A stretch of DNA of 64,000 nt from Candidatus Latescibacterota bacterium (GTDB lineage: Bacteria > Latescibacterota > UBA2968 > UBA8231): the NCBI GenBank assembly GCA_965242865.1, contig CBDETK010000013.1, forward strand, positions 4,640,001-4,704,000. Direction: 5' to 3'. The translations under genes were made by a program, and so were the position numbers. Below the pieces are notes generated by a model. That model had not been told where the DNA came from and ran no database searches. It saw only the letters and a program-made list of their open reading frames with translations. This document shows, one piece after another, positions 5,738-25,383 of this stretch (the first letter of the stretch is position 1; each line of letters begins with the position of its first letter).

Positions 5738-7450
5738 TCAGCGCGAAGGCGCGGGCGGGTCGAGCTGGATTTGGGGAATGGCTGCTTCAAAGACGCGCAC
5801 CCGATCGGCGTACTCTGCTCGGCAGCGGGCGACCAATTCGTTGAAGCGCCGTTCCTGCTCTATGACGCGCAAAATCGCCGCTACGCGCTGGTGTACCGCT
5901 TTTAAGGGGGGGATTTCCCCGCCGCTGCGCTCTTTGACGCGGAAGATCGAATAGCCGCCGGCCACCGCTACCGGGCCGACCAAGGCCCCGATGTCGGCGG
6001 CCATAGCATGGTCCACCAGCGCGCCGTAAATCCCTTGCTGATACGAATGGAGATGAAGTTTCCCCCGGCCATCAGGCCCCCCGGGACGCTGACTCAGGGA
6101 AGCTACATCGGCGATGGTTTCGCCGCGGTCTAGACGCTGGCGCAGAACCTCGGCTCGGTCGCGGTCTTCGACTAAGAGCTCGTCTAGCCATATTTCCACC
6201 GGGGTGCGAAATTGTTGCCGATGGTCTTGGTAGTACTGGGCTACGGCCGCATCGGTGATGGTTATTTGGTCGCCGATCTCGCGCTGGCGCAGGGCGAGGA
6301 TGAGCAGTTCCTCGGTCTTGCGCTGCTTCCAGTAGCGCATGGCCGGGCTCTCGGTGTGGCCGGCCTCTTTGGCCGCGCGCCAGACCAGCGTCTTGGGAAT
6401 GGGCAATTTCCAGGCCGCCCGGATTATTTGCAGGCTGTCGCCCAAGGCCGGCACCTGCCGGCTGCGGCGGAACGATTCAATGTAGTGAGTCGCGGTTATG
6501 CGGCCGCCGTCAAACGTGAACAGCGGTGCCGAACCTTCCTCGGGGGCGAGTGTGGGATAGGGCTCGATGGCGGGGTCTTGGGCCGCAAGGACCGCCAGCC
6601 CAGCAGAGTGCAGGCGCAGGTTTAGGGAAATCGCCAATTCCTCGATCAGGGCCTGATGTTCGGCGACGAAGCGTTCCTTCCACACATCTTTGTACAAGCC
6701 TTGGCGATGCTGGGCGAAATCGCCTTGGCGTTCAGCGGTGCAGAAAACGAGCTGGTAATTTTTGCTCAGGGGCAGGACCTCAGACAGGGAACCGCGCTTT
6801 AGGTTGGCAAAAACTTGGGCGGGAATGCCGTGATTGGCGGCCCCGACGCGGTTGACATAGCCCAAATCGCCGCCCTGCTCGGCGGATTGCAGGTCAAGGG
6901 AATGGGCTTGGGCCAAGGCGGCGAAGTCGTCGGCCGTGGCTATTTGCTGGCGCAGTTTCACGGCTTCGTCGCGGGTGTTGACCAACAGGCGGAGTAAGCG
7001 CTTTTCGCGCTGAAAATCGCCGGCCACAAACAGCGCTTCGAGCTCCTCGTCGGAAATTTCGATCCGGGCGCTTACTTTGACGCTTTGGTAGGTGTTGATG
7101 ACCTTTTCGCGAAATTTCCACGCGAGTTTGTTCTCAAAGGTCCGCACCGTGTCCAAACCGCGCGCGCGGGCCGCATGCGCTAGCAGCTTCTGGTCTATGA
7201 GCGATTGCAGATAATCGCGGCGTGCGGCATCGCCGCTCTCCTTGGATTTTAGACCCGGCCCCAACGAGGCAATGAGACGCTCTACTTCAACCGCGAAAAT
7301 AGAATCGCGGCCGACTCGGGCGACGGCGATTGGCGGGGCCGTTTGCTCGGGCGGGGGCGGGGCGGGCGCGGGGGATTGGTCTTGGGGCACACAAGCAGAC
7401 AGAACCCAACTGAGTGCCAAACACGGCATTGAAACGGTGGGGCGATACAT
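5738..7450 (-). CDS. Lipoprotein peptidyl-prolyl isomerase/foldase (SurA/PrsA-like, two parvulin domains)
   Basis: LSAC lipobox; YLQSLIDQKLLAHAARARGLD SurA-N-like segment; FAALAQAHSLD..SAEQGGDLG; second parvulin-like domain with GPVAVAGGYSIFRV. Confidence 0.85.
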   Translation of the reverse strand: MYRPTVSMPCLALSWVLSACVPQDQSPAPAPPPPEQTAPPIAVARVGRDSIFAVEVERLIASLGPGLKSKESGDAARRDYLQSLIDQKLLAHAARARGLDTVRTFENKLAWKFREKVINTYQSVKVSARIEISDEELEALFVAGDFQREKRLLRLLVNTRDEAVKLRQQIATADDFAALAQAHSLDLQSAEQGGDLGYVNRVGAANHGIPAQVFANLKRGSLSEVLPLSKNYQLVFCTAERQGDFAQHRQGLYKDVWKERFVAEHQALIEELAISLNLRLHSAGLAVLAAQDPAIEPYPTLAPEEGSAPLFTFDGGRITATHYIESFRRSRQVPALGDSLQIIRAAWKLPIPKTLVWRAAKEAGHTESPAMRYWKQRKTEELLILALRQREIGDQITITDAAVAQYYQDHRQQFRTPVEIWLDELLVEDRDRAEVLRQRLDRGETIADVASLSQRPGGPDGRGKLHLHSYQQGIYGALVDHAMAADIGALVGPVAVAGGYSIFRVKERSGGEIPPLKAVHQRVAAILRVIEQERRFNELVARCRAEYADRVRVFEAAIPQIQLDPPAPSR

Positions 7451-7722
7451 GAATGAAGCGGTTCCTTTGTAGACTCAATGGGCCGTGGTTGGGCAGAATA
7501 TATAGTTCTCTGGCAAAGAGCACGAATCAGGGCAAAGGGGGCGAGCACGGGTGGCCGTTCTTTTATTTTTCTTGATTTTTAATTTTTAATTTTCGTACCT
7601 TGGAAGCCGAGTAGTAAGTCGCTTTTGTCCCACTCAATCGCAGAAAGGAGGAAGCGCAGCAGGCTCAGAGAAGTATTCGACGTAGAACGCAAGTTTTCCT
7701 GCTTTGCGAGAAAGGAACAGAC

Positions 7723-8613
7723 ATGGCACGTCGCATTATGACGGCTGCTTTGGCTCTCACGTTGGGCCTTGCGGTCAATGTTTCGGCGCACTCGCCCGAA
7801 GGCGCCATTTTTCCGGCCTTCCAGTGGCCAGCCGGCCTCGAGCCCGTCCTAGACGGCGTCGGCAGTGAATACGATATCGTCCCCGAGGCGTACTGGCAGA
7901 CCACCGAGCAGTTTCCCGATACCCAAGGTGGGCGGGAGATAGATGCGTCCAATTTCGACGCCAAAGCCACGGTGACCTTCAGTTTGGGGACCAACCGGCT
8001 CTACTTTTACAGCCAAGTATTCGACGACATCAACCGGCCGGGCGACACGTGGCAAATTCTCCTCGACGCCGACCACAGCGGGGGCGAATGCTATCCGGGC
8101 GATGAGCGGTTGGACGGTTCCCAGTGCTATCAGACCGAGACCTACAACAACATCGGCGACACGGTGTTAGGCTCGGAAATTGTCCACTTCTTCTGGGGCG
8201 CGGCGACTTGGTTGCCCGAGGAGGGCTGGTACAATGCCGTGGCCACTTTTGAAGGCGAGCACTACGGTCCGGGGACGACTTGGCTGGAAATCCGCTTGGC
8301 GCCCACCGACGACATCAATCCCGCCGGCCCGGGCGAGTCCATCCTCCACACGATGCAAGAGAGCAACATAATCGGCATCCACTACAACTGGATGGATTAC
8401 GACGTGGGCTGCCGCGAGCCGCGCGCGGGCGAAGAGTGCAGCGGCTGGGACGCTTTTTACAACCTGAGCCAGAGCGACATTGGCTTTAGGAACGCCGATG
8501 GCTGCAGCGACTTCTTCTTGTCGCCCATTGACGAGAGCGTTGACTTCGGCTCGATTCCCTCGGCGGTTGAAGCCACGACTTGGGGCCGGCTCAAGGCCGG
8601 TTTCGTCCACTAA
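7723..8613 (+). CDS. Secreted protein, CBM9/DOMON-like sugar-binding fold (tentative), with C-terminal AVEATTWGRLK motif
   Basis: Signal peptide (VSA|H); PVLDG..SEY, RLYFYSQVFDD, ILLDADHSGG, IIG..YNWMDYD pattern; strong AGAAAGGA SD. Confidence 0.7.
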   Translation: MARRIMTAALALTLGLAVNVSAHSPEGAIFPAFQWPAGLEPVLDGVGSEYDIVPEAYWQTTEQFPDTQGGREIDASNFDAKATVTFSLGTNRLYFYSQVFDDINRPGDTWQILLDADHSGGECYPGDERLDGSQCYQTETYNNIGDTVLGSEIVHFFWGAATWLPEEGWYNAVATFEGEHYGPGTTWLEIRLAPTDDINPAGPGESILHTMQESNIIGIHYNWMDYDVGCREPRAGEECSGWDAFYNLSQSDIGFRNADGCSDFFLSPIDESVDFGSIPSAVEATTWGRLKAGFVH

Positions 8614-8639
8614 GCGACCCTCCAGCGGGTGTTGTTTTC

Positions 8640-8681
8640 GCTGCCTGGTGTACCGCGACGGTGCGCCAGGCAGCACCTTTT
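8640..8681 (+). terminator. Intra-operon stem-loop (attenuator/terminator or mRNA-stabilising hairpin)
   Basis: GCTGCCTGGTGTACCG-cga-CGGTGCGCCAGGCAGC, 16-bp stem with 2 G-U pairs, followed by ACCTTTT. Confidence 0.65.
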
Positions 8682-8695
8682 AACCCAATTAAAGT

Positions 8696-10543
8696 ATGAA
8701 AGCCGCGCTGCTGTCTTTTCTGGCCCCGACCTTGGCTTGGGGACTCACCATATATCGAGTGGGTGGCCATGGGCTTCCGCCGCCCGAATTGGCGAGCCAT
8801 CCAGCCGTGGAGTTTGTCCAGTTGAGCTGGGAGCGCTTTGCCGAGGGCACCGAGGGGGTGCAGGTCGGCGTGGAGGTCGGCCAGGAGGGCCGGCTCGCCC
8901 CGGTGTTCATTCCTTCGGACGAGAATATGGCGCGGTCTTCCTTTGCCCGCGGCGGCGGCCCCGGCAGTTGGAAGTACAATTTTCTCACCAAAGGCGAAGA
9001 AATCGATCGGATCGCCGACGGCGATTCAACCACTTTTCTCGACCCGGCCGTGCTGGTCGCGCGCTCGGAGTCGTCCTTGGTGTATCTCGATTTAGGCGGC
9101 CGCTTCTTGGTGAACCGAGTGGTCGTCTATCCCCGCCCGAATCATCCCGACCGCCTCATTGCGGACTACACCCTGTACTCGTTGCCCAAGGGGACGATAA
9201 GGCCACAGAGCAAAAACGCAATCGCGCGGGGGACCGACAACCGAAATCCGCGGCTCGAAATCAACTTTGTCCCCCGGGTTCTCGATCAGATCCAGCTCAA
9301 TATCCACAAAAAAGAGGGTTGGGAGATCGCCGAGCTGGAGGTCTATGGCGAGGGCTATGTATCGAGTGCCCTGTACACTTCCGGGGCTTTTGACCTCGGC
9401 CAGCCATCCAGCTTGGGTGCGGTCCGCTGGTCGGGCTTTGCAGATACCCACGCTAAACTGAGCATCCGCACGCGCAGCGGCCATACGGCGGATCCCAATC
9501 GCTACTGGCGGTTTACCGGCCGCGGCCAAGAGAAAACCTTCCGCAATGCACAGGGGGAGCCCTTGACCGGGGCCGACTACCACAACCTAAAGGGCAACAA
9601 AGCCGAAATCACCACGGACCTCGACAACTGGAGTTCGTGGTCCGGGCCGTACGATTGGGCCGACCGGCGCGGCACGGCGATTACCTCGCCGAGCCCCCGA
9701 CAATTCATCCAAGTGCAGTTGGAGTTTGTACCCAGTGGACTGGACGGCGCGGCCCTCGATTTTATTGAATTCCGCGTCACCCAGCCGCCGGTGGCCGGGC
9801 GGGTGCTCGGCGAGATCTGGCCGATTGAGGTAACGCCCGGGGAAGAGACGGCCTTTGTCTATGCCATGCGGCCGGATTTTGCCGGCGGCGAAAGCGGCTT
9901 TGACCGCTTGGTGCTGGAGACGGCGGGGCAGTTCACCAGCGTCGATTCCGTGCGCGTCAATGAGGAAGTGCAGGATTGGCGCCTCGTCGAGCCGTTGACG
10001 GACCAGCGGTTGGTCTTGGAAGTGGGGCGCATGGACCGGAGCAAGACCGGCCGCGTGGTGGAGGTGTTCTTTAAGGGGCGGGTGTTTCGCTTTGGCACGG
10101 TGTTCGCCGCCGAGGTCTTCGATAGCCAACGCCCGCTGGAGGTGGGGCAGTTGGTCGAAGATGGGGATGCGACCTTCCGCCTAGACGGCAACCAGCGGTC
10201 GGTGGGGATTGAGTTGGGCCGCACGATCGTCAGTGAGTTGGTGCTCAGTTCGCAGGTATGCACGCCCAATGGCGACCGAGTCAACGACGAGGTCCATATC
10301 GAGTACACGCTGCTCGAACTGGCCGGCACCGGCGCGGTGGAAGTGGGCATATTCGATCTGGCGGGACGCCGAGTGCGCCAGGTGTATCGGGGCGCGGATA
10401 CCAGCGGCCAATACGCCCGGAGGTGGGATGGCCGGGCCGATGGCGGGAGCGTGGTGGCGCCGGGTGTATATCTCTACCGAGTACAGGTGGATACAGACGA
10501 AGGACGGACCGAACGCAGTGGACTCGTGGCGGTCGCGTATTGA
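8696..10543 (+). CDS. Secreted protein with discoidin/galactose-binding-like domain and C-terminal FlgD-Ig domain (paralog 1)
   Basis: Signal peptide; DGDSTT..LDLG..EIAELEVYGEGY; WSSWS..SPSPRQFIQ; TPNGDRVND..IFDLAGRRVR..WDGR..PGVYLY; ends LVAVAY. Confidence 0.8.
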   Translation: MKAALLSFLAPTLAWGLTIYRVGGHGLPPPELASHPAVEFVQLSWERFAEGTEGVQVGVEVGQEGRLAPVFIPSDENMARSSFARGGGPGSWKYNFLTKGEEIDRIADGDSTTFLDPAVLVARSESSLVYLDLGGRFLVNRVVVYPRPNHPDRLIADYTLYSLPKGTIRPQSKNAIARGTDNRNPRLEINFVPRVLDQIQLNIHKKEGWEIAELEVYGEGYVSSALYTSGAFDLGQPSSLGAVRWSGFADTHAKLSIRTRSGHTADPNRYWRFTGRGQEKTFRNAQGEPLTGADYHNLKGNKAEITTDLDNWSSWSGPYDWADRRGTAITSPSPRQFIQVQLEFVPSGLDGAALDFIEFRVTQPPVAGRVLGEIWPIEVTPGEETAFVYAMRPDFAGGESGFDRLVLETAGQFTSVDSVRVNEEVQDWRLVEPLTDQRLVLEVGRMDRSKTGRVVEVFFKGRVFRFGTVFAAEVFDSQRPLEVGQLVEDGDATFRLDGNQRSVGIELGRTIVSELVLSSQVCTPNGDRVNDEVHIEYTLLELAGTGAVEVGIFDLAGRRVRQVYRGADTSGQYARRWDGRADGGSVVAPGVYLYRVQVDTDEGRTERSGLVAVAY

Positions 10544-10566
10544 GCGGCAGCTCAAAGGAGAAAGCA

Positions 10567-11436
10567 ATGGACAGCATGTATCTGCGCTGGGCTGGCTGTG
10601 GGCACTTTGAGGCCCTATTGGGCGATGTCAACGTGTGTTTTGATCCCTATCTCTTCGGCGAAGAACTCGACCGAGCCGAACCGATTTTCGACTACGTTTT
10701 CATCAGCCACGAGCACTTTGACCATTGTCACCCCAAGACCTTGCACAAGCTCTGTAGGGGCGAGCGCTGGAAAAAACTCTTCGTCCCCATCGGCTGTCTG
10801 ACGCCCAACGAACCCATTGACGAACACTACGGCGACGCCGCTTTTGCCCGCGACCTGCCCATCACCAAGCACATCGACCCGGCCAAGGTCCAAGTGGTCT
10901 ATCCCAAGTACCAGGACGTCGCGCGCTATGGCCGCCGCGAATTTCCCGGCCCCTTTGCGCTCGACCTAGGGCCGCTTCAAGTCGAAGTGTACGAAAGCGG
11001 CGAAAGCGCCCGGCCGGACCTGCCCACTTGCGCCTATCTAGTCACCCATGCCGCCCGGGATGTAGCCATTTTCCACACCGGAGATTTGCACGGGGCCTAT
11101 CCGCCGCTGGAGAATCTGCGCGGCCGCGTCGATTACTTAGTGCATATGAAGACGCCGATGGGGCCGCTGATCAATGCGGTGCGGCCCAAATTCGTCATTC
11201 CCACCCACTATCGGACGGACCGCCAGTCCGAGCCGATTCCGGCCGGCCATTGGCCGCCCAATCTAACGGACGTCAACGCCTTCCTCGAAGACCTGCGGCA
11301 GCAGATTGACGGTCAAGCCCAATTGCTGCCCTTTACCGCGCCCATTCAATACGAAGTGGAGCTGCCAGCCAAAAAGGTCAAGTGGGCGTGGGCGTGGTAC
11401 AATTCATGGGATGTTCCGGCTTGGCGCGCCGAGTAA
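10567..11436 (+). CDS. MBL-fold metallo-hydrolase (UlaG-like)
   Basis: ISHEHFDHC, FHTGD, IPTHY motifs; AAAGGAG SD before ATG 10567. Confidence 0.85.
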   Translation: MDSMYLRWAGCGHFEALLGDVNVCFDPYLFGEELDRAEPIFDYVFISHEHFDHCHPKTLHKLCRGERWKKLFVPIGCLTPNEPIDEHYGDAAFARDLPITKHIDPAKVQVVYPKYQDVARYGRREFPGPFALDLGPLQVEVYESGESARPDLPTCAYLVTHAARDVAIFHTGDLHGAYPPLENLRGRVDYLVHMKTPMGPLINAVRPKFVIPTHYRTDRQSEPIPAGHWPPNLTDVNAFLEDLRQQIDGQAQLLPFTAPIQYEVELPAKKVKWAWAWYNSWDVPAWRAE

Positions 11437-11450: not shown

Positions 11451-13586
11451 GTGGCCCAACCTTTTCGGCCCATAGGAAGGAAAAGGTACGGCCTTCTCGC
11501 CTTGGCGTGGCTGTCGTTGGCCGCCGAGGCCCCAGCGCAGACCATCGCCTTGGGGGAAGGCGGGCGGGCGTGGTTGGGCGGGGGAGAAGAAATGGACCCG
11601 CAATTCCGCTTGTCTAATACCGAGTTGGCCGTTGGCAATACGCCGGGCGGCGTCATCGACTTTGCGTTTGCCGAGGGGTGGATTTTCCCGCAACAGATCG
11701 ACCCCGGGCGGAATCTGGCCCTCGGCGCGGCCGACCGGGAGGGCGGCATGAATTCGCCCCTGCCCTCGATCAGCGAGGCTTCGCTGGCGGCCATGATTGA
11801 CGGGGATGCAGAAACGGCCTTTCGCCGCAAGGCCAACGCGGCCGGAGAAGTGGTCATCGCCCGCGGCATCATTATGGACTTGGACTTGGGGGCGCGCTTT
11901 GGCGTCAACCGAATCCGGTTTTTCCCGCGCAACACCATTCGCCCCAGCGCGGAGTTCAAGTTTGAAAACGACTTCATGCGCGGCTATGCCCTCCAACTAA
12001 ACGACGGCAGCGAGGAAGCGTCGGTGGAAGGCCGCCCGCAGTACACGACCTTCGTGCGGGTCGAGGACAATACCGAGGCCGTCGTCGAGTGGTCTCTGCC
12101 CTTGCAATTCGTGCGCTACGTGCGATTGGTGTCCCTGTCCAACATCGGCTTTGAGGTGGATGAGTTGGAGGTCTTCGGCGCGGGCTTCGTGCCCGAAGCC
12201 CAGTACTTGTCGGACATCTTCGATCTGGGCGATTTAGCCAACTGGGGCCATATCCGCTGGAGCGAGCGGCGCGAGGGCCTAGCCGGCCTGTCGGCCATTC
12301 GCGTTTTCACCCGGTCCGGCCGCGACCCTACGCCCTTTATCTTCAATCGCTTCAACGCCGACTTGCAGGAAGTGCCTTGGCAGGAGGCGGCCGCAATCAA
12401 CGGCGTCTTGCTCGACGACCTGCCCCTAGACGAGGCGTTCGATCAGTACAACTCCCAATCCGCAGCCGTGCGGCAAGCCCTCGCGCTGTCGCAGGCCGAG
12501 CACGCCGGTTTGCCCCTCCAGCAAAAAGCACCCATAAGAGACGACCTAATCAACTGGAGCAACTGGTCGCCCCCCTACCCGCCCGCGGGAACGACCCCGG
12601 CCGGCACGCCCATTGTCTCGCCCGGTCCGCGGCAGTACTTCCAGTTCAGGATCGATTTTGTCAGCCGCGATTTTCTCGCCGCGGCCGGGGTTGGCGTCCT
12701 GTCCTTTGACCTCGCCCGACCGGTGCCGGCCGAAAAAATCGTCGGCGAAATTTTCCCCCGCGAGGTCGCGGCCGGGGAGGTGGTGGAGTTCACCTACGGG
12801 GCGCGGGTGGGAGTCCGGCCGCAGGATACGGGGTTCAATCGCTTTGAAGTATCCTCGCCGAGCGTCTTTGAAAAAATCGGCCGCATCGAGGTGCTCAATG
12901 CCCGGGACGAGCTCATCGCCGGGGAGGATTTTGACGCGGTCCTCGCCGAGGCGCGCCTGCCGCTGCGGGCGGGCGAGTTCAGCATTGAGAGCGCCGCGGC
13001 CGGCCGCTTTGTCGTCGGCTTCCCGCTGGTCGGCGATGGCGATTTGCTCAAAATTTCGTTCACGACTTCGGTTTTGCGCTTTGGACAGGGGTTTGCCGGT
13101 AGCGCTTGGCTGGTCGATCCGGCCGCGCCCGAGCCGTTGCCGCAGTCGGTGGTGCCGGGCAATGCGGCTCAACTGGGGGCCGCAGACGTGGATCCGCGGC
13201 CGGTGGGCAGCGAGGATTTGACTGCAGTGGACAACAACTTAGCGGTGCGCATCGCCATAAGGGGCTCGCTGCTGGGGCGACTGCACGTGACCCCGGAGGT
13301 TTTTACCCCCAACGGCGACGGGATCAACGAGGCGGCCGCGGTCCATTTTGAGGTGCTGCGGCTGGGGGTAGGCGCTCCGCTCAGGGTGGAGATCCGCGAT
13401 TTGAGCGGTCGGTTCATCGCCGCGCCCTTTGCGGATGACCGGGCCAGCGGTCGCTTTGCCGCCGCTTGGGATGGGCGGGATGGCACCGGCGCGGTGGTGG
13501 CGCCGGGCATCTATTTGGTGCGCGTCTCGCTCGCTACAAATGTCGGCGCCGAGGCCAAAACCGGCCTCGTTCGCGTGGCGTACTGA
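11451..13586 (+). CDS. Secreted discoidin-like/FlgD-Ig protein (paralog 2); start codon uncertain
   Basis: Signal peptide-like RKRYGLLALAWLSLAAEAPAQ; MIDGDAETAF, LDLGARFGVNRIRFFP, SPGPRQYFQ, TPNGDGINE; ends LVRVAY. Confidence 0.8.
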   Translation: MAQPFRPIGRKRYGLLALAWLSLAAEAPAQTIALGEGGRAWLGGGEEMDPQFRLSNTELAVGNTPGGVIDFAFAEGWIFPQQIDPGRNLALGAADREGGMNSPLPSISEASLAAMIDGDAETAFRRKANAAGEVVIARGIIMDLDLGARFGVNRIRFFPRNTIRPSAEFKFENDFMRGYALQLNDGSEEASVEGRPQYTTFVRVEDNTEAVVEWSLPLQFVRYVRLVSLSNIGFEVDELEVFGAGFVPEAQYLSDIFDLGDLANWGHIRWSERREGLAGLSAIRVFTRSGRDPTPFIFNRFNADLQEVPWQEAAAINGVLLDDLPLDEAFDQYNSQSAAVRQALALSQAEHAGLPLQQKAPIRDDLINWSNWSPPYPPAGTTPAGTPIVSPGPRQYFQFRIDFVSRDFLAAAGVGVLSFDLARPVPAEKIVGEIFPREVAAGEVVEFTYGARVGVRPQDTGFNRFEVSSPSVFEKIGRIEVLNARDELIAGEDFDAVLAEARLPLRAGEFSIESAAAGRFVVGFPLVGDGDLLKISFTTSVLRFGQGFAGSAWLVDPAAPEPLPQSVVPGNAAQLGAADVDPRPVGSEDLTAVDNNLAVRIAIRGSLLGRLHVTPEVFTPNGDGINEAAAVHFEVLRLGVGAPLRVEIRDLSGRFIAAPFADDRASGRFAAAWDGRDGTGAVVAPGIYLVRVSLATNVGAEAKTGLVRVAY

Positions 13587-16328: not shown

Positions 16329-16330
16329 CC

Positions 16331-19051
16331 GTGGCCCGGGTGGTTATGGCCATACTCGCCCTGTTGTCGCTCGGCGGCGAGCTCGGCGGCGAGGAATACG
16401 GCAATCGCTTGGGGCGGGGGCACGGCGGCGGGCTGCAATACGTCACGCGCAGCCGCAGCACGCTCATCAACGCCATTGATCCGCGGATCCAGAAGTGGTA
16501 CATGCCCCAAGAACTGTACCGCGAATACCGCCTCAAGCAGTGGGAATACACCAATTATGCGCGGAATTTCTATCGCAGCTATTTATCGGCCACGCTCGAA
16601 GGAGATTACTTCTACGACTTGTTTGGCCGCCGCGTGATGCACGGGTGGTTGGTGTACGAGGCGAGAAAGGAGCAGCCTAGAGCGTCGGAGGGCAACAGCC
16701 TGCTCAAGGGCCTGCCCTACGGCGGCAATTTCCAGAACCTGATCATCGCCTCGGACTCCAAGGGGCAGCACCACTTCTCCCTGACCATAGGCGATGCGAT
16801 CGCCACGACCCTCACGCCGATGACGTTCCGCAAGGCCGCCTTCAACGGCGTCCAGTTTCACTATCTGCAAAACCGCTACGCGGGCACGGTGCTGTTGTCG
16901 CGCATCAGTGCGCCGCTGGTCACCACCTCGTCGTTCGACGTGGGGCTGACCAATGCCACGGAATTGACCGCCGGGCGGCTCACCGCCCAGTTGGGCGATC
17001 ACCTCACGGTCGGCGGTACGTACGTCAACAGCCACAACAGCCGCGCCACCTTGGAGCGCTTTGCCGGCAACATGTTCAAGGGGTTTCTCACCACCGACCA
17101 AGCCAGCAACGCCGTCACATTTGTCGAGGTGCGCCTCAGCGACGATTCGCCCGAAGACGGCGAGAATGGGGCCGTTCTCTTTGCCGAGAACATCATCTTA
17201 AAGGACGTGCGCGGTCATCAGTGGAACGGGGCGCAGGTCGGGTACGTGCCGGCGCGCACGGGCGGCGAATTGCGCGACGGTTTTGCGGTGGCCGACGGCG
17301 GCGACCGCATGGTGCTGCGCTACAATCTCGAAGCCTTGGCCGCGGCGCGGGTCGTGGAAGTGGATGGCGAGCGTACATGGCAGCCGACTGCGGTCGATTC
17401 CCTCGCCGAGGTGCGCTTTGAATTGGCCTTAGCCAATGATTATCGGGTCGAGGTCGCTTCAAATCGCCAGACCAATATCGAGGCGCAGCCGGTCTTCCTC
17501 TTGGTCGAGCGCGCCCCGGGCAATGTCGGCGATACCTCCAATCGGCGCACCGTGCGGTTTGACTACGGCTTACCCACGGCCAATCAGCTCGCGGGCCTCA
17601 CCTTGGAGGTGCGCCAACTGTGGGGTTTTGACCTGTACGCCGAATTAAACGTCAACCACCGCTTTGCCCAGTACCCCAGCCCCCTGCTGGCGACCCACCG
17701 CACCTCCTCTCGCCGGGCCGCGGCGTGGATGGTTGAGCTCGCGCATAGACGAGCGCCCTATTTTTTGCACGGCGAAGTCTTCAGCATGGACCCAGAGTAC
17801 ACCACCAGCGTCTTTATGACCGAGACCAACGGGCGCGTCGATTACGTCGATCCAGAGTCCTTTTTGTACGACTATGTCGATGACAACGACGATTTGGACC
17901 GCTTCCCGGATCAAAAGCGCCGGTGGCAATCCTCGAGATTGGGGCAAACCCTTTCCACGGGCGAGGGCGCGGCCGACCCGGCCGTGTTCCCCGGTTGGGA
18001 CGAGAACGGCGATTTCATCTCCGATTTCAATCAGAACGACACGCCGACGCGCCGCAATGCACTGGCCGATTACGAGGAGCCCTTTTTGCGCTTTAGCGTC
18101 GATCGCCCCGAGTTCCTTTTTGGCCTGGACATGAACAACAACGGCTGGATCGACCGCTTTGAAGACGACGCAGAGCCGGACTATCCCTACGACCGGGATC
18201 TGCGGGGATACAACGTGTACGGCGGCGTTGACATCGCGCCCCAGGTGCGCTTGATCGCGGGCCAGACGCAGCAGTGGCAGTTGTCGAGCAAGCGGCGCAG
18301 CGAGGCCGCCTACGGCCTTTTGGTCCTAGAGCAAGACTGGCCCGGCCTAGGGCGTCTGCGAGTCTTTGAGCAGCTAAAAAAGGTGCGCGACAATATCGCG
18401 GACGACCGCTTGGCCCCGCCGCAGGCACTGGGCGAGCAGCAGGCCGTGGTCGAGGACCCGCTCGCGGCCCAGAACACTTGGATCCACACCGCGTGGCTGG
18501 GGTTTGATTACACGGGCCTAAAATCGCTGCAGGTGATCAACAAGTTCAAGTACCAGGGCTTTCACCAACGCGCCGCCCAGCCGGTGCTCGCCGCGCGCGG
18601 GGCGCGGCCCTTGGGGTACTTTTTGGGCGTGGTCAACAAGGTCGATTACGGCCGCGATCTGGGCCGAGTACACCTCCGCCCGCGCCTTAAAAACGAGTTG
18701 TTCTGGGAGGTCCCCTATCTAGCGCGAGCCAGCGCGCGTCAGTGGTGGAAACAGTTGCTGTCGTTCAGCGTGCGGTTCCCCATTTTTAAGGAGTCGTGGA
18801 TTGAGACGGGCGTTGAGCAGGTTTTTACCACCGACCTCGCCACGGCCCCCCAAGCAGGTGACCGCACGGGCGATGGCCAGCAGACGATTCTGGCGATTGA
18901 GCTGACCAATTACGGCACGTACTTGGGCTACCGCTCGGTCATGCAGTGCGGCCTGCGCTTCGATCGGGACCAGTTTGAGCGCGTTGGCCGCCGGGCCGCA
19001 ACCCAGACCGGCAGCCTCGTCTTTGTCTCGTTCTACGCCGGGCTGGAGTAG
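16331..19051 (+). CDS. Large exported hypothetical protein (paralog B)
   Basis: Shares YGxRLG, WYxPQELY, IIASDSKGQHH, FDYGLPTANQ, FPGWDENxDF and final YAGL with 13599..16328. Confidence 0.75.
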   Translation: MARVVMAILALLSLGGELGGEEYGNRLGRGHGGGLQYVTRSRSTLINAIDPRIQKWYMPQELYREYRLKQWEYTNYARNFYRSYLSATLEGDYFYDLFGRRVMHGWLVYEARKEQPRASEGNSLLKGLPYGGNFQNLIIASDSKGQHHFSLTIGDAIATTLTPMTFRKAAFNGVQFHYLQNRYAGTVLLSRISAPLVTTSSFDVGLTNATELTAGRLTAQLGDHLTVGGTYVNSHNSRATLERFAGNMFKGFLTTDQASNAVTFVEVRLSDDSPEDGENGAVLFAENIILKDVRGHQWNGAQVGYVPARTGGELRDGFAVADGGDRMVLRYNLEALAAARVVEVDGERTWQPTAVDSLAEVRFELALANDYRVEVASNRQTNIEAQPVFLLVERAPGNVGDTSNRRTVRFDYGLPTANQLAGLTLEVRQLWGFDLYAELNVNHRFAQYPSPLLATHRTSSRRAAAWMVELAHRRAPYFLHGEVFSMDPEYTTSVFMTETNGRVDYVDPESFLYDYVDDNDDLDRFPDQKRRWQSSRLGQTLSTGEGAADPAVFPGWDENGDFISDFNQNDTPTRRNALADYEEPFLRFSVDRPEFLFGLDMNNNGWIDRFEDDAEPDYPYDRDLRGYNVYGGVDIAPQVRLIAGQTQQWQLSSKRRSEAAYGLLVLEQDWPGLGRLRVFEQLKKVRDNIADDRLAPPQALGEQQAVVEDPLAAQNTWIHTAWLGFDYTGLKSLQVINKFKYQGFHQRAAQPVLAARGARPLGYFLGVVNKVDYGRDLGRVHLRPRLKNELFWEVPYLARASARQWWKQLLSFSVRFPIFKESWIETGVEQVFTTDLATAPQAGDRTGDGQQTILAIELTNYGTYLGYRSVMQCGLRFDRDQFERVGRRAATQTGSLVFVSFYAGLE

Positions 19052-19055: not shown

Positions 19056-21572
19056 ATGCGAAAGGGGATTTCTATGGCGATCTGGATTTTGGTCGTCGCG
19101 CTCGGTTGCCGGGCCGCGGCGGCCGAGGAGGGGTACGCGATCCAAGGCGACCGCATTGTCGTGCGCGGCGCGGATCAGTGGCGGCAATGGCTCTTTCCCT
19201 TTGGCACGGTCGACATCGACTCCGCAGGCGCTCGGCCGCACTTTGTGGCGTCGGAACTCAACGCCAGCCTCAATGCCCACCGCTTTCCCTTGGGGGCGGA
19301 CGAGGACGAAAAGGAAGGGGGAATTTTGGCCGCTGGCTCGGGCTTGGCCGGGGCCGCGCACCTCCTCGACGGCCAAGTAGATACCTATTGGGCACCCGAC
19401 CTAGACGATCCCCCGGAGCTGTGGTGGGTGGCGATTGACTTGGGGCGGATCGTTTCGGCCCAGCGCATTGTCTTGCGCTTTGCCGGCGAGGGCGAGGGCG
19501 ATCCCTTTTACCAATTTCGCCTGATGGTGGCCGACGGCGAGGGCAAAGTAGGCGACAATCTCGATTATCACTTGGTCGGCAAGACCGAGCGGCCCAATGG
19601 GACCCAACGCGAATTTTCTTTTGACCTCCAGCCCTTCCAACAGGCCGATCCCCATTTTATCGGCGATGCCTTTCGCTTTGTGCAGGTGGTGATGACGGAC
19701 AGCCGCTTGGGCAAGGCCGAGGAAGTGGACCGCTCGGCCTACCAGAATTTGCCTGCGGAGCTGCAGGGCGCTGTGGAGCACTTTGGCCGCAGCCGCACCG
19801 GGAACGAGTGGCTGCTCGACGAAGAGGCGTACGCGCTGCTCGACCCGGCTGAGCGGGGTTCAATCCGCTATTATCGCCGCGAACAACCGCGCCTCGCCGA
19901 GGTCGAGGTCTGGACCTTGGGCGAGAACATAGCGCTGGGGGCGATCCAGCGGGGCGGCACGGTGGAAGGGCACGGCTTTAACCCCACCCGCAGCCTCGAT
20001 GGGGACTACACCACTTGGTACGGTCTGCAACAGAGTTACACCCGCGAGGCGGCCGAGCCCGAACGGCAAGTCCTCTTTGACCTAGGGGCTTTGTACTGGC
20101 TGGACCTATTCCACTTTCTACCGCCCGCCGCCCGCAGCGCCGGCGGTACGCTGGGCAACTATCGGATGAAGCTGTCGGACGGTTCGCTCGCGCCGGACGG
20201 GAGCTTGCAGTGGGTGCCCGTTGAAGAGCGGCGGGCCTTTCGCCAGCCCCGGTTCCAAGAAGTGCGCTTTGCGCTGCAAAAGGTCCGCTACATCGCCTTC
20301 GATTATCTGGTGGGCAGGGGGGGAAGCAGAGCCGGTTGGTCCGAACTGCAGGCCTACGGCGAAGGCTATCAGCCGGAGGTGGTGTTGGAATCGCCGTTGA
20401 TCGACTTGAGCAGTAGCCGGAATTTGACCGCGCTCCACTGGGACGCCGACATCCCGCCCGGGACGCGCCTGGAGGTGGCCACCCGCACCGGCGACCAGAC
20501 CAAAGTCAACACCACGTATTACCGGAGCGACGGCGCCGAAGTAGATAAAAAAGCGTACCACAAGTTGATTGCCGCGCTCCGGGGGGATTCGCTCAATGTG
20601 TTGGTCGTTGATGAGGAGACTTGGAGCCCTTGGAGCAAACCGCACCTGCGGTCGGGCCAAGTGGTCACGTCGCCATCGCCGCGCCGCTTCCTCAAGGCCC
20701 AAGTGCGGTTGAGCAGCGACGACCCGCAAAACGCCGTGCTCTTGCGCCGCTTGGAGGTGTGGTTTTCCCAACCCTGGGTGGGCCGAGCCTTGGGCGAGGT
20801 GTTTCCGGTGCAGGTGGAACGCCCGGGCGAGAACATGCCGCTGACCTTTTTCGTGCGGCCGGTGCGGCGGGTGGGCGATCCGGGGATCGACGAGGTGTTG
20901 TTGGTCAGCTCCGGGGGGACGCCGCTGTCGCTGCGGGAGGTTCGCCTCGGCGCGGCCGCAGCTGTAGCGGCTGGTGGTGGCCAAGCGCTGGGCCTAGCCG
21001 GGGTGGAGGTGCTCAAGACAGGGGCCGACTCGTTGTGGGTGCGGCTGCCGGCCGCCGTGGGCCGCGCCGAGATAGTCGCCGTTGACGTCTGGACCTCGCT
21101 GTTTGGCCACGGCGTTTCCTTTGCGGGGCGGGTGGGCAACCGCGCCGATTCGGGAACTTGGCAATTGGTCGAAGCCGACCAAGAGGCCGTGGCCGAAGTG
21201 GAAAGCGGCGTCCTGCGGGTGCTGGTGCCCTCGGGCCCGGTGGGGTTGTCGAACCTGACGCTCGCCGCCAAGGTCGTGACGCCCAACGGCGACGGGATCA
21301 ACGACGCCGTGCGGATTGGCTTTGAAGTGCTGCGCTTGGACGGAACCGAGGCCGTGCGCGTGTCGGTGCACGATCTGGCCGGTCGGCGCGTTTGGACGCT
21401 GGAGCAGGTGCGGGCCCGGGCGAGCGGCCAATACTCAGTAGCTTGGGAGGGGGTCAATGACGAGGGCGAGCGGGTGCGGCCGGGGACTTACCTCTTGCGG
21501 GTGGAGGTCCATGCGGATGCGCGCCGCAACGTGCGCACCCAGATCACGCGCCTCGTTCACGTGGTGTATTGA
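19056..21572 (+). CDS. Secreted discoidin-like/FlgD-Ig protein (paralog 3, two discoidin-like segments)
   Basis: Signal peptide; LLDGQVDTYW..IDLGR; LDGDYTT..FDLG; WSPWS..SPSPRRF; TPNGDGIND; ends LVHVVY. Confidence 0.8.
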   Translation: MRKGISMAIWILVVALGCRAAAAEEGYAIQGDRIVVRGADQWRQWLFPFGTVDIDSAGARPHFVASELNASLNAHRFPLGADEDEKEGGILAAGSGLAGAAHLLDGQVDTYWAPDLDDPPELWWVAIDLGRIVSAQRIVLRFAGEGEGDPFYQFRLMVADGEGKVGDNLDYHLVGKTERPNGTQREFSFDLQPFQQADPHFIGDAFRFVQVVMTDSRLGKAEEVDRSAYQNLPAELQGAVEHFGRSRTGNEWLLDEEAYALLDPAERGSIRYYRREQPRLAEVEVWTLGENIALGAIQRGGTVEGHGFNPTRSLDGDYTTWYGLQQSYTREAAEPERQVLFDLGALYWLDLFHFLPPAARSAGGTLGNYRMKLSDGSLAPDGSLQWVPVEERRAFRQPRFQEVRFALQKVRYIAFDYLVGRGGSRAGWSELQAYGEGYQPEVVLESPLIDLSSSRNLTALHWDADIPPGTRLEVATRTGDQTKVNTTYYRSDGAEVDKKAYHKLIAALRGDSLNVLVVDEETWSPWSKPHLRSGQVVTSPSPRRFLKAQVRLSSDDPQNAVLLRRLEVWFSQPWVGRALGEVFPVQVERPGENMPLTFFVRPVRRVGDPGIDEVLLVSSGGTPLSLREVRLGAAAAVAAGGGQALGLAGVEVLKTGADSLWVRLPAAVGRAEIVAVDVWTSLFGHGVSFAGRVGNRADSGTWQLVEADQEAVAEVESGVLRVLVPSGPVGLSNLTLAAKVVTPNGDGINDAVRIGFEVLRLDGTEAVRVSVHDLAGRRVWTLEQVRARASGQYSVAWEGVNDEGERVRPGTYLLRVEVHADARRNVRTQITRLVHVVY

Positions 21573-21581: not shown

Positions 21582-23396
21582 GTGGGCCGCCCAGTCCAAC
21601 GGTGGATGGCTGTTTGGGTGCTTGGCTGGGCCGTGGGCTGCCAAAGCGAGCGGCCGGCCGTGTACTTCACCGATGCCACCGACCAAGCCGGCCTTTCTTT
21701 TATCCACGAAAACGGCGCGGCCGGGCAGTACTGGCTCATCGAGACCATGGGGGCCGGCGGGGCCCTTGCCGACTTGGACGAGGACAGCGACTTGGACGTC
21801 TATCTGGTCAACGGCTTCGATCTAAGGGGCTTGAACGCCCGGCCGATCAACTTGGTGCGCCGCGAAAACGGCCTCTATTGGGTGGCTCCGTCGGCCCCCA
21901 GCCCCGAGCCACGCTCGGCGGACCCGGCCGATTATGCGGTTGAGCTGACGCCCGCGGCCGGGGTGGTGCCAAGGGGCAACGCGCTCTACCGCAACGAAGG
22001 GACTGGTACTTTTGTCGAAGTGCCCAATGCCGGTGGGGCCGCGGATGTAAGCTATGGCATGGGCGTAGCCGTGGCCGATGCCGACAACGACGGCGACCAA
22101 GACCTGTACGCGACCAACTACGGACCCAACGCCTTCTATCGCAACCGCGGGGACGCTACCTTCGTCCGCGCCCGGGGCGTTAAGGCTCCCCAATGGAGCA
22201 CCAGCGCCGCCTTTTTCGACCGCGACAACGATGGCTCGCTCGACCTGTACGTGGTCAACTATCTCGATTTTACCCCAGCTACCAACAAAATCTGCGGCGG
22301 CTTCATCCACACGGACGACGCGGGCTTGCGCGCCATTGGCGAAGATTCGCGCTCGTACTGTGCGCCCAGCGAGTACGGGGGCGTGCCCGATGTGCTCTAC
22401 CACAACGCGGAGGACGGAACCTTTGTCGATGTATCCCTGGCTGCCGGCGTGGCCAATCCCGAGGGCAAGGGGCTGGGCGTGGTGGCTTGGGACTGGAACG
22501 AGGACGGGTACCAAGACCTGTACGTAGCCAACGACGGGGTGGCCAACTTCCTCTACCAAAACGCCGGCGATGGCACGTTCCGCGATGTAGCCCTGCAAGC
22601 TGGGGTGGCCTACAATGTGCGCGGCCAAGCCGAGGCCGGCATGGGAGTCGATATCGGCGATTGCGACCGCGATGGCGACTGGGACCTGTTCGTCACCAAT
22701 TTCTCCCGCGAAACCAATACGCTCTATCGCAATGAGGGAACCTACTTCAAGGATGTGACCGCGGCGGCGGGCTTGGGCCGGCCGAGCTGGCTCTATTTGG
22801 GCTTTGGCACCGCGTTTTTCGATTACGACCACGACGGCGACCCGGATCTGTACGTGGCCAACGGCCACGTCTTGGACCGCGTCGAGGTACTGCAACCCGG
22901 GGTGCGCTACGCCCAAGAGCATCAGTTGTTTCGCAACGATGGCTCCTGTCGCTTTGCCGAGGTGGGGGACCGCGCGGGGAGTTGGTTCGCGCAAGCGCAA
23001 ATAAGTCGGGGGCTGGCCCGGGGCGACTGGGATGGCGATGGCGATTTAGACCTGCTGGTGACCAATTGCGGCGGCCCGGCCAAGCTGGCCCGCAACCACC
23101 ACGGCAACGGGCGTCACTGGGCCTCGATCAAGCTGGTGGCTACAGCGGCCAACCGCGACGCAGTGGGAGCCGAGGTGCGCGTGGTGACCGATTCGTTGGA
23201 CCAGCGCCGTCTCGTGAGCAGCGGGAGCAGCTATTTATCGGCCGGCGATCGGCGGCTCCACTTTGGCTTGGGTGACCGCCAGCGCATTGATCGGCTCGAA
23301 GTCCAATGGCCCCATGGCGTCAGGCAGGTATTTCGGGAGCTACCCGCCAACCGGAATTTGCTCGTTGAGCAAGGACGGGGCGTGCAGTATGAATGA
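21582..23396 (+). CDS. CRTAC1-family FG-GAP lipoprotein with ASPIC/UnbV domain
   Basis: AVGC lipobox; DxDxDGDxDLY repeats; SYLS..RLHFGLG..LEVQWP. Confidence 0.9.
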   Translation: MGRPVQRWMAVWVLGWAVGCQSERPAVYFTDATDQAGLSFIHENGAAGQYWLIETMGAGGALADLDEDSDLDVYLVNGFDLRGLNARPINLVRRENGLYWVAPSAPSPEPRSADPADYAVELTPAAGVVPRGNALYRNEGTGTFVEVPNAGGAADVSYGMGVAVADADNDGDQDLYATNYGPNAFYRNRGDATFVRARGVKAPQWSTSAAFFDRDNDGSLDLYVVNYLDFTPATNKICGGFIHTDDAGLRAIGEDSRSYCAPSEYGGVPDVLYHNAEDGTFVDVSLAAGVANPEGKGLGVVAWDWNEDGYQDLYVANDGVANFLYQNAGDGTFRDVALQAGVAYNVRGQAEAGMGVDIGDCDRDGDWDLFVTNFSRETNTLYRNEGTYFKDVTAAAGLGRPSWLYLGFGTAFFDYDHDGDPDLYVANGHVLDRVEVLQPGVRYAQEHQLFRNDGSCRFAEVGDRAGSWFAQAQISRGLARGDWDGDGDLDLLVTNCGGPAKLARNHHGNGRHWASIKLVATAANRDAVGAEVRVVTDSLDQRRLVSSGSSYLSAGDRRLHFGLGDRQRIDRLEVQWPHGVRQVFRELPANRNLLVEQGRGVQYE

Positions 23397-25383
23397 ACCG
23401 CCAGCCCCGCGGCGAGACTTGGGGCTGGCCGGCGGTGTCTTGCTCCTAGCTTTGGCCGTGCGTCTGGTCTATCTGGCGCACAGCGCGGCCAATCCCTTCT
23501 TCGCGGCCCCGGTTGTGGACGCCCACTCATACATGGCGCAGGCGCGGCAGCTCGCCGAGGGGTCTTGGGTGGGCGACAAGCCCTTTTGGCAGCCGCCTCT
23601 ATACCCTTATTTCCTCGCCTCGATTTACGCGGTTTCCGGCGACTTGTTGTGGACGCCCCGGTGTATCCAGCTTCTCTTGGGAGCGGCCTCAGCTGCCTTG
23701 GTCTTTGCCCTCGGTCGGCAGGTTTTTGGCACCCGAGTCGGTCTCTTGGCTGGGGGCATGGCCTGTCTATACGGCCCCTCCATCTATTTTGAAGGCGAGC
23801 TGCTGCCCACCGCGCTGGCCGTTTTCCTCAATCTCCTGTTGCTCTTTATCCTGCTCCAGCCCGGCCGGGGCTGGGGACAGGCCCTAGCCGCGGGCCTGGT
23901 CCAAGGCTTGGCCATAATCGCCGTGCCCAATGCGGCTGGGTTGGCTTTTTGCGCCGGCCTGTGGTACTGGAAGAGCGCCGAGCGAGCCGTGCGGGGCAAG
24001 CTGGCTTGGTGCCTGCTTTTTGCGGCGGCCGCCAGCGCCGTGGTCGGAGCGGTGACGGCGAGGAATTGGGTGGTCAGCGGCGAGTTCATCCCCTTGTCTT
24101 GGAACGGCGGCGTGAATTTCTACTTGGGCAACCATCCCGAGTACGACCGCTTGGTGGCAATTCGCCCCGGGCCGGCCTGGGAGGCCCTGATGGAGCAGCC
24201 GGTGGCCGCGGGCCATGTGGGGTACGCGGACCGCTCGGCGTACTTCTACCGGCAAGCTGGCGACTGGATCGCCCGTGCGCCGGGGGATTTTGTGCGGTTG
24301 TTGGGATACAAGGCGTTCTTGCTGGTGCGCGGCGAGGAGATCAAACGCAACCAAGACGTGTACTTTGCCCGCACCTATTCTTGGCTGCTCGGCGTCTTGC
24401 TGTGGAAAATCCACCACTTCGCCGTTCCGTTTGGGCTACTGGGGCCTTTGGCCGCTGTGGGCATGGTGCTCGCTTGGCGTCGTCGGCCCCAAGCGGGTTT
24501 GCTGCTGCTTTGCACTGGCGCGTACAGCGCCTCGCTGCTGCTCTTTTTTGTGACTAGCCGCTATCGCTTGCCCTTGGTGCCGCTGCTGTTGCCGTTTGCC
24601 GGGTACGCGCTGGTCTGGCTGGTGCAACAGGGGCGGGCCAGCCAGTGGCGTCTCTTGGGGAGCGGGGTGGTGGTCGTCGTCTTGCTGGCGATGGTATCCA
24701 ACGCTGGCCTGCGGCCGGCCGACCCCTTGGCCGACGCGGAAATACACTTTGAGCTGGGGCGCGTCCAAGCCCAACAAGGGCAGTACGCGGCCGCGGTGCG
24801 CTCCTTTGGAACCGCCGTGCAGCTCGATCCCAATTACCTGCGGGCGCGCCACAATCTAGGCGCGGCGCTGGCCGCGATGCGGCGCTACCGCGAAGCCGAA
24901 GCGGTTTATCAGCGGGCCTTGGCGCAAGCTCCCGACGATCAGGGACTGCATCTCAACTTGGCGGCTCTGTACCGGGCTACGGGACGATACGAGCAAGCGG
25001 TGGAGCACTACCGCCGAGTGCTGGCCACCAAGGCCGACGCCGCGGTTTTTCTCTCGCTGGGACGGGTCTATGAGAGCATGGGGGCAACCGAGCAGGCTCG
25101 GCACGCCTTTGCCGCAGCACTAAGCGACGACGAGGTGCGGGCGCAGGCGGCCAATGCGCTGGGATTGATCGCGGTCCGGCAAGGGTCGTTGGAGCGGGCG
25201 GTTGATTACTTTGCCATGGCGCTAAAGGCCGCGCCCGGCAATCACTTGATCGCCTTCAATTTAGGAGCGGCCTACCGCGACTTGGGCCAATTCGACGAGG
25301 CGGCAACGTTCTACCGCCTGACGCTGCGCTTGGCCCCCGAGTACGCCAAAGCCGAGCGTGCGTTGGCGCGATTGGAGCGGTGA
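23389..25383 (+). CDS. GT-C fold (ArnT/GT39-like) membrane glycosyltransferase with C-terminal TPR repeats
   Basis: VVDA..Y, FWQPPLYPYFL, NFYLGN, SRYRLP; about 6 TPRs (HNLGAAL, LNLAALY, FNLGAAY); start overlaps the upstream stop. Confidence 0.8.
   Translation: MNEPPAPRRDLGLAGGVLLLALAVRLVYLAHSAANPFFAAPVVDAHSYMAQARQLAEGSWVGDKPFWQPPLYPYFLASIYAVSGDLLWTPRCIQLLLGAASAALVFALGRQVFGTRVGLLAGGMACLYGPSIYFEGELLPTALAVFLNLLLLFILLQPGRGWGQALAAGLVQGLAIIAVPNAAGLAFCAGLWYWKSAERAVRGKLAWCLLFAAAASAVVGAVTARNWVVSGEFIPLSWNGGVNFYLGNHPEYDRLVAIRPGPAWEALMEQPVAAGHVGYADRSAYFYRQAGDWIARAPGDFVRLLGYKAFLLVRGEEIKRNQDVYFARTYSWLLGVLLWKIHHFAVPFGLLGPLAAVGMVLAWRRRPQAGLLLLCTGAYSASLLLFFVTSRYRLPLVPLLLPFAGYALVWLVQQGRASQWRLLGSGVVVVVLLAMVSNAGLRPADPLADAEIHFELGRVQAQQGQYAAAVRSFGTAVQLDPNYLRARHNLGAALAAMRRYREAEAVYQRALAQAPDDQGLHLNLAALYRATGRYEQAVEHYRRVLATKADAAVFLSLGRVYESMGATEQARHAFAAALSDDEVRAQAANALGLIAVRQGSLERAVDYFAMALKAAPGNHLIAFNLGAAYRDLGQFDEAATFYRLTLRLAPEYAKAERALARLER

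Follow-up and report, generated by a model that had tools for sequence, protein, structure and literature searches.

Two adjacent genes for paralogous proteins of about 900 amino acids, set among genes for three tailed secreted proteins, raise the question of what a Latescibacterota cell builds with giant outer membrane proteins that carry no family name. The genes lie in a 64,000-nucleotide stretch of Candidatus Latescibacterota bacterium DNA (GenBank assembly GCA_965242865.1, contig CBDETK010000013.1, positions 4,640,001 to 4,704,000 of the forward strand; hereafter the window), which is a high-GC (~0.62) part of a 5.6-Mb contig from a genome of 6.0 Mb that is 93.6% complete and 6.8% contaminated. 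We refer to the two giant proteins as Oa and Ob (together O), to the tailed proteins as Fa, Fb and Fc (together F), and to the other members of the locus as t, P, M, C and G (Table 1). Gene neighbourhoods, sequence profiles and predicted folds indicate that O and F are the core of a cassette repeated dozens of times in this genome, that the tails of F are sorting domains of the kind that a type IX secretion system (T9SS) uses, and, more tentatively, that O is the partner on which F would be held at the cell surface.

The gene set recurs in 29 neighbourhoods of the host genome, which hold 37 full-length O genes, and in 78 loci of other genomes (GTDB species representatives), far beyond what chance would give. 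An F gene lies directly upstream of O in 76 of these 78 loci, the two exceptions being L060, at a contig end, and L077. Within the host genome, F stands directly upstream of 22 of the 37 O genes, and seven of the 15 that remain stand second in a tandem pair. Among 33 sampled loci there are 31 in which an open reading frame (ORF) of 575–1650 amino acids ends no more than 400 bp before O, with a terminal tyrosine in 30 of them and a tryptophan in one. The full order of the window's own locus (C P' t F M F O O F C G) is kept in ten loci, and L005 shows its right half, while at five loci of the host genome G directly follows a single barrel. A first-pass annotation, made from the letters of the window, had proposed a multi-component envelope module encoded by a tightly packed plus-strand run next to a divergent AT-rich intergenic region, and had suggested looking for conserved gene order and for several copies per genome. 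The recurrence described above bears out the module and both expectations, the intergenic region is lower in GC than the DNA around it, and all ORFs lie where they had been placed, separated by 82, 23, 14, 12, 2, 4 and 9 bp from the gene at 7723 through that at 21582. A gene stoichiometry of 1:3:2, also proposed there, is not fixed, since cassettes contain one to four tailed genes and one or two barrels; and the foldase, the parvulin P (26 family ORFs in the genome), is often present in cassettes without being a constant part of them.

A search across the phylum (E 1e-20) detected O in 93 of the 151 genomes sampled. It is present in all 63 sampled genomes of the host's GTDB family, each of which yields between 5 and 90 first-look candidates, and was not found in the sampled genomes of two other families of the same class (0/30 and 0/19). 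O-bearing metagenome-assembled genomes (MAGs) labelled Gemmatimonadota or Handelsmanbacteria are the same genomes as members of that GTDB family, with identical contig coordinates. As to habitat, the sequencing runs that hold more than half of the words sampled from positions 7600–17500 include four labelled 'sponge metagenome' (shares 0.64–0.73), and the lineage is probably sponge-associated; judging by their titles, MAGs from lake and groundwater sources carry the barrel family too.

Oa and Ob are 46% identical across 894 amino acids, and neither matches a Pfam family even at E 10 or an NCBIfam family at E 0.01. Homologs of Oa are abundant, with more than 1206 of similar length in a 90%-clustered library, mostly about 50% identical over their full length and called 'hypothetical' wherever they are named, and 787 clusters with E up to 1e-3 in a 50%-clustered library. 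A confident AlphaFold2 (AF2) model of Oa built from 70 sequences (predicted local distance difference test score, pLDDT, 82.2; predicted TM-score, pTM, 0.81) suggests a barrel of about 24 long antiparallel strands, as counted from the strand list (residues 104–243, 414–487 and 612–907). Two insertions are predicted, namely a beta-domain at ~269–412 and a 120-residue acidic segment at ~495–610 with little regular structure. Most residues that are nearly invariant across the family lie in the acidic segment (D518, N519, D520, D521, D523, D527, D545, D549, D553, D588, N590–N592, D596, E599 and D601), which may bind Ca2+. By strand parity in the model, both insertions would either face outward or be folded into the lumen, and the N-terminal 80 residues, conserved and modelled at low confidence, would be periplasmic.

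Fold comparison of the O model did not lead to a specific relative. The large barrels that Foldseek returned (MtrB, LptD, SlpA, PapC/FimD and SprA) are generic matches, none with a TM-score above 0.35. By VIA-align, the top match was the Deinococcus SlpA barrel 7zgx (Z 15.0, root-mean-square deviation [rmsd] 8.0 A, 418 residues), and the next matches were unrelated porins at Z 12–13. Matches to TonB-dependent transporter folds were generic as well (Foldseek TMq/TMt 0.17–0.26; VIA-align Z 8.8–9.7), and Pfam and NCBIfam scans showed no Plug or TonB-dependent receptor domain in Oa or Ob. An O profile searched against PDB sequences gave only two chance-level matches (E 0.01 and 0.32), and a search of the Atlas with O gave only unnamed clusters, the nearest named one being DUF6029 (score 0.89), which is a lead only. 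The large proteins belong to no characterised family and have only generic barrel matches by fold, in agreement with the first-pass annotation, which had placed them outside known families.

The history of the barrels is tied to their position in the cassette. In a tree of the 37 barrels of the host genome, one clade holds all seven second-position barrels, and the seven first-position barrels branch in the same order as their partners (1374935 / (2902070, 1714483) / (5519239, (2367379, 2240591)) vs 1377722 / (2899210, 1716933) / (5522028, (2362249, 2237664))), with Oa and Ob of the window near the base of their respective groups. According to these mirrored trees, the pair arose once and was then copied as a unit, which would fit two barrels working together. 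Single-barrel clades match other cassette layouts, for example P-F-O-G.

The three F proteins are paralogs, mutually 30–34% identical, and their tails, at first described simply as FlgD-like, are T9SS-type C-terminal sorting domains (CTDs) on three grounds. FlgD_ig is above the Pfam cut-off in all three proteins, and CHU_C, by which Pfam models the type B signal of the T9SS, in two of the three. In an AF2 model of Fb (pLDDT 86.0, pTM 0.72, all-beta), residues 605–711 superpose best on the CTD of PorU from P. gingivalis (6za2; Z 12.3, rmsd 2.3 A, 99 residues). Finally, parts of a T9SS are encoded in the genome: SprA_N scores 87.5 bits (cut-off 27) in a 2150-aa frame, PorU scores 624 bits (NCBIfam cut-off 420), and porU is adjoined by a PorV-like gene (147 bits, under the cut-off of 250); a search for GldK gave only sub-threshold matches to FGE-sulfatase domains. 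The earlier statement that nothing in the run resembles a T9SS component is therefore correct for the barrels and not for the F tails, and the notion of a system with no link to known machinery has to be given up in view of the tails and of SprA, PorU and the PorV-like gene.

The remainder of F looks like a binding protein. The head of Fb (residues 86–243) superposes on the family 32 carbohydrate-binding module (CBM32) 4zxe (Z 15.2, rmsd 2.1 A, 123 residues) and further matches many galactose-, fucose-, GalNAc- and alginate-binding CBM32 modules, and PF00754 (F5_F8_type_C) is above its cut-off in Fc alone (30.6 vs 28.2 bits). The F proteins thus carry a discoidin-type, CBM32-like sandwich, a putative ligand-binding domain. 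Fold searches with the Fb model found Ig-like and S-layer-like beta-sandwich domains in the body and no enzyme fold.

A CTD profile assigns the tail subtype of F ([TS]PNGD ... terminal V/A-Y) to 90 ORFs of the genome; 70 of these have an O gene at most 12 kb away, compared with 13 of the 96 other CTD ORFs. Other tails occur as well. An 808-aa He_PIG Ig protein within the window (30730–33156, minus strand) ends in a classical type A tail (Por_Secre_tail 29.1 bits, ending ...KMILLK), which shows at least three CTD subtypes to be in use in the genome. Tandem arrays of ~700–950-aa proteins with a different CTD subtype are found on contig C13 at ~367–397 kb, 488–496 kb and 3157–3203 kb; the copies in the first two blocks end in ...EAKKTTKLP, and those at 3157–3203 kb are recognised only as PorU-CTD-like matches. 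These arrays represent another expansion of T9SS-type cargo, separate from the first.

The small protein t carries a tail of another kind. It has no Pfam match even at E 10, and its nearest clusters in the language-model Atlas contain CBM9_1 in 13%, 37% and 100% of their members, which is a lead only. The genome encodes 18 paralogs of t; 13 have a barrel gene no more than 12 kb away, and 16 terminate in [ST]WGx[IVLM]K. In its usual form this tag reads ..(T)SVE..[ST]WGx[IVLM]K.. and falls among the last 25 residues. Homologs of t from other genomes have retained it in 46 of 48 distinct C-termini. No hydrophobic or transmembrane segment follows it, unlike PEP-CTERM-type signals, in which a transmembrane segment stands after the motif. 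Genome-wide, 59 of 12,733 ORFs of at least 120 aa have the tag in their last 25 residues; many are far from any barrel, and most are small exported-looking proteins of several unrelated families. The tag resembles an address label of an undescribed kind.

The foldase, CRTAC1-like and GT-C/TPR genes are frequent yet optional in the cassettes. By tblastn mapped onto ORFs, the genome contains 26 P, 21 t, 45 CRTAC1-like and 13 full GT-C/TPR family members. P matches Rotamase (44.6 bits, cut-off 21.7) and Rotamase_2 (59.7 bits, cut-off 27), and its nearest solved sequence relatives in the PDB are PrsA, PpiD and SurA. The gene at 10567–11436, left unnamed in the first-pass annotation, encodes a protein with a metallo-beta-lactamase (MBL) fold; it is single-copy in the genome and is retained in the orthologous loci as M, and so belongs to this locus, outside the repeated module. 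For G, ATG at 23389 is the likely start, not 23263. A small lipoprotein of ~250 aa (lipobox ..GC, no Pfam match) has 12 copies in the genome (e.g., contig C13 4609271–4610029, 1999679–2000569 and 5437212–5437967), 10 of them within 7 kb of a barrel and none in the window cassette, and is likely a further subunit of the module. The genome encodes 30 DUF6785/DUF6784 proteins, 13 of which have a barrel gene no more than 17 kb away; they may be an inner membrane partner or simply another expanded family.

Table 1. Features of the cassette and its surroundings in the window (positions counted from the first nucleotide of the window)
Feature	Position	Strand	Evidence and remarks
DUF6785/DUF6784 multi-pass membrane protein	965..2998	+	Pfam 412.9 and 86.2 bits; 8 hydrophobic segments; loosely associated accessory
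Upstream C, CRTAC1/ASPIC-like FG-GAP protein	3893..5728	+	FG-GAP_3 167.9 bits, UnbV_ASPIC 73 bits; first in C P' t F M F O O F C G
P, two-parvulin PrsA/SurA/PpiD-like foldase, probable lipoprotein	5738..7450	-	Divergently transcribed; lipobox-like N-terminus VLSAC
Divergent intergenic region	7451..7722	.	GC 0.467 vs ~0.62 around
t, small secreted protein, 296 aa, C-terminal tag ...TTWGRLKAGFVH	7723..8613	+	CBM9-like by language-model lead only
Fa, tailed protein: predicted lectin-like body and T9SS-type CTD	8696..10543	+	CHU_C 41.8, FlgD_ig 34.8 bits; aligns with Fb and Fc
M, MBL-fold protein, 289 aa, without signal peptide	10567..11436	+	Lactamase_B_3 38.2 bits
Fb, tailed protein directly upstream of Oa	11451..13586	+	CBM32-like ~83-249, beta-sandwich domains, predicted CTD ~605-711
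Oa, predicted giant outer membrane barrel, 909 aa	13599..16328	+	AF2 model
Ob, predicted giant outer membrane barrel, 906 aa, second-position paralog	16331..19051	+	46% identical to Oa; in second-position clade
Fc, tailed protein with extra N-terminal F5/8 type C domain	19056..21572	+	F5_F8_type_C 30.6, CHU_C 30.4, FlgD_ig 34.7 bits
C, CRTAC1/ASPIC-like FG-GAP propeller, probable lipoprotein (WAVGC)	21582..23396	+	FG-GAP_3 x7 137 bits, UnbV_ASPIC 73 bits; frequent accessory
G, GT-C (PMT_2) glycosyltransferase with C-terminal tetratricopeptide repeats (TPRs)	23389..25383	+	PMT_2 29.2 bits and many TPR families; accessory

In a survey of the cassette neighbourhoods, 225 ORFs were clustered and representatives of 14 of the multi-member groups were scanned with Pfam, lone ORFs being left out. 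Within this coverage, no recurring glycoside hydrolase or other carbohydrate-active enzyme (CAZyme), SusD-like protein, sigma/anti-sigma pair or other regulator was found in the cassettes, and the SusD family was absent from the ten cassette proteins as well as from the 14 recurrent neighbour families. Other recurring neighbours were PhyH, FGE-sulfatase-like, MR/MLE, GFO/IDH/MocA and ABC transporter genes. A paralogous family of ~660–740 aa without a Pfam match (39 phmmer matches, a few of them fragments, often in tandem, e.g., contig C13 49677–62019 and 1249675–1282021) has no specific link to barrels. Downstream of the cassette, the window contains a short ORF made up of a Dynamin_N fragment and ankyrin repeats (27082–27633, plus strand), and GC dips between 27001 and 30000 (0.542 at 27–28 kb and 0.465 at 29–30 kb); this DNA may be foreign or eukaryote-like.

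We hypothesize, at a probability somewhat short of even, that the cassettes encode a T9SS-fed module for surface display or capture, in which the barrel is the cognate partner of its cargo and resembles PorP/SprF in its working, not in family membership. In this model, F, with its CBM32-like head, beta-sandwich stalk and CTD, would cross the inner membrane via Sec and the outer membrane via the SprA translocon, and O, or the Oa/Ob pair, encoded just downstream, would receive F and hold it at the surface in the manner of PorP/SprF or PorV. The parvulin lipoprotein P might act as a periplasmic chaperone for the barrel or the cargo, and the CBM9-like t, with its own C-terminal tag, might join the assembly. 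The output would be a surface array of lectin-like binders, possibly for glycans, and diverged cassettes would give different ligand specificities. A precedent for anchoring a CTD on a barrel exists in PorU, which is kept on the surface via an uncleaved CTD bound to the PorV barrel, and the PorU CTD is the domain on which the tail of Fb superposes best; PorV, however, is a small FadL-like barrel common to many cargo proteins, whereas each cassette here has its own giant barrel.

The closest parallel in gene organisation is the type B branch of the T9SS of Bacteroidota (e.g., SprB-SprF and PG1035-PorP). In Flavobacterium and Porphyromonas, type B cargo genes have a PorP/SprF-like barrel gene directly downstream (PMC12618676), and PorP-like barrels are described as binding such cargo and acting as specific shuttles and anchors, with orphan cargo genes also in existence (PMC12618676, PMC9143113). 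This cargo-barrel logic is matched by the placing of F before O, by a tail subtype linked to barrels, by the 20 F genes that are orphans and by cargo of adhesin- or lectin-like character, in that a CTD-bearing surface protein is encoded directly upstream of its own barrel, many such pairs occur per genome, some cargo is orphaned, and the cargo is not enzymatic. There are also differences. Unlike PorP/SprF, O is ~900 aa long, with a predicted ~24 strands plus an acidic loop and one inserted domain, and gives no PF11751 match; and unlike in type B systems there are ancient Oa/Ob pairs, a CTD with a PorU- or type A-like fold and additional parts (t, P, the small lipoprotein, the CRTAC1-like and the GT-C/TPR proteins), and the phylum is Latescibacterota. 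The size, acidic loop and pairing of O are new relative to the PorP family.

Several results weigh against the proposed display module. The NCBIfam CTD models are not satisfied: Fa scores 19.5 with the type A model (TIGR04183, cut-off 23) and 18 with the type B model (TIGR04131, cut-off 35), and Fb and Fc do not match either at E 0.01. The predicted tail fold of F is a type A/PorU-like sandwich, unlike the four-strand sheet predicted for type B CTDs (PMC12618676). O is not a PorP/SprF homolog, given the lack of a Pfam match at E 10, its ~900 aa and its ~24 strands; a whole-genome search for PorP/SprF (PF11751) gave no match, and is uninformative because its controls were equally silent. The same holds for the TIGRFAM models of GldL and GldM, with no match in the genome and equally silent controls. 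For 20 of the 90 F-type genes there is no O gene anywhere near. Over 22 pairs, the distances among O genes are correlated with those among the adjacent F genes (Mantel r 0.46 with the CTD and 0.60 with the head, p about 5e-4), but the partial correlation is 0.47 for the head and 0.20 for the CTD, so that there is no CTD-specific signal, and a specific co-evolution of the CTD with O, which we considered, is unsupported. Because copying of whole cassettes suffices to explain the O-F correlation, it lends no support to recognition of the CTD by O. A complex prediction of Oa (residues 24–909) with the Fb CTD (602–711) gave 'no answer', with a score of 0.00 in each of two runs and a mark of 0.32, and says nothing either way.

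Alternatively, the cassettes might serve uptake in the manner of polysaccharide utilization loci (PULs), with O as a large import channel without a TonB-type plug that is fed by F and t, a counterpart of SusC/SusD. This is unlikely, though to be taken seriously, and it could coexist with surface display if F docks on O. Like the PULs of Bacteroidota, the genome has dozens of diverged cassettes that pair a large barrel with CBM-like surface proteins: the head of F is CBM32-like, there is the CBM9-like lead for t, and the ~24-strand barrel would, according to the model, be wide enough for a channel. DUF6785 membrane proteins near 13 cassettes, and sugar-acid, oxidoreductase and ABC transporter genes scattered nearby, point the same way; the DUF6785 link is loose, however, with 17 of the 30 copies far from any barrel. 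Unlike in PULs, no SusD, recurrent glycoside hydrolase or other CAZyme, sigma/anti-sigma pair or regulator was seen with the barrels in the neighbourhoods surveyed, the binders have T9SS-type tails rather than lipid anchors, and no energy coupling is evident in O, which has no Plug or TonB-receptor domain. TonB-dependent receptors coexist with O rather than being replaced by it. Replacement was considered and rejected, since Plug domains occur in 151 of 151 genomes of the phylum, with or without O, and 22 times in this genome. A bolder version, which seems rather unlikely to us, is that the acidic-loop barrels, singly or in obligate Oa/Ob pairs, are a new class of outer membrane machine that docks T9SS-delivered lectin arrays and also passes the captured substrate inward; it would amount to a Latescibacterota-specific form of nutrient capture whose parts have no kinship with SusC/SusD or PorP and include a chaperone and a small tagged subunit of its own as well as a C-terminal address tag. 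The first-pass annotation had offered uptake or export as the role of the system, and each is a hypothesis here.

A self-contained machine similar to an usher or translocon appears improbable. Here, O would thread or polymerise F and t into a fibre or an S-layer-like coat with P as chaperone, and the CTD-like tail would serve assembly rather than T9SS export. The frequent presence of a parvulin in the cassettes (26 family ORFs) and the Ig-like and S-layer-like domains of F would suit such a role, as would solved barrels of this size, which enclose a protein partner and of which MtrB, LptD and PapC/FimD are among the Foldseek matches; the conserved tag of t could then be a donor strand or docking peptide. 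However, the usher and LptD matches are generic (TM-scores 0.14–0.35), with PapC/FimD at E 5e-6 to 1e-4 and TM-scores of 0.20–0.35 doing no better than other barrels, and no cassette protein has a Pfam match to an usher-family barrel or a PapD-type chaperone. Further, the tag is not specific to cassettes, being found in 59 ORFs, many far from barrels, and PorU and SprA, both above cut-off, provide the F tails with an obvious exporter. Very unlikely, in our view, is a structural role for O, as a porin or outer membrane scaffold with distant kinship to the giant SlpA/OmpM barrels (PF21620; the Deinococcus SDBC, 7zgx) that is merely co-expressed with F and forms no specific complex with it. Its appeal lies in the very large barrel, in 7zgx as the best structural match of O, and in weak local matches to SlpA_C (PF21620, cut-off 35 bits) in 10 of 44 distant O relatives, at 14.2–30.2 bits and all on profile positions ~231–330, starting at 231–233. 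These sequence matches are a lead to remote kinship, not membership: Oa and Ob themselves do not match SlpA_C and, unlike SlpA/OmpM, have no SLH or coiled-coil stalk, and unrelated porins follow closely in the structural comparison. Moreover, one would not look for a housekeeping porin in 37 diverged copies, every one of them linked to CTD-bearing F genes of its own.

A literature search, with most subscription journals outside its coverage, found no publication on the barrel family and no paper joining 'Latescibacteria' with 'type IX secretion'. In a study of sponge Latescibacterota (PMC12993501), the terms outer membrane, secretion system, FlgD, T9SS, adhesi- and paralog have 0 occurrences.

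The O barrels are a ~900-aa outer membrane family of hundreds of sequence clusters without a name or an assigned function, and they are tied gene by gene to cargo with T9SS-type tails outside Bacteroidota. If the barrel is the partner of its cargo, as in the display module that we favour, the type B logic of a cargo plus its cognate barrel would extend to another architecture and another phylum; if it also imports, the cassettes would represent a second, independent solution to the task of PULs. The question is amenable to heterologous secretion assays, pull-downs and cryo-electron microscopy. The cassettes account for a large part of what a widespread uncultured phylum encodes for its envelope, and probably shape what these cells bind or feed on.

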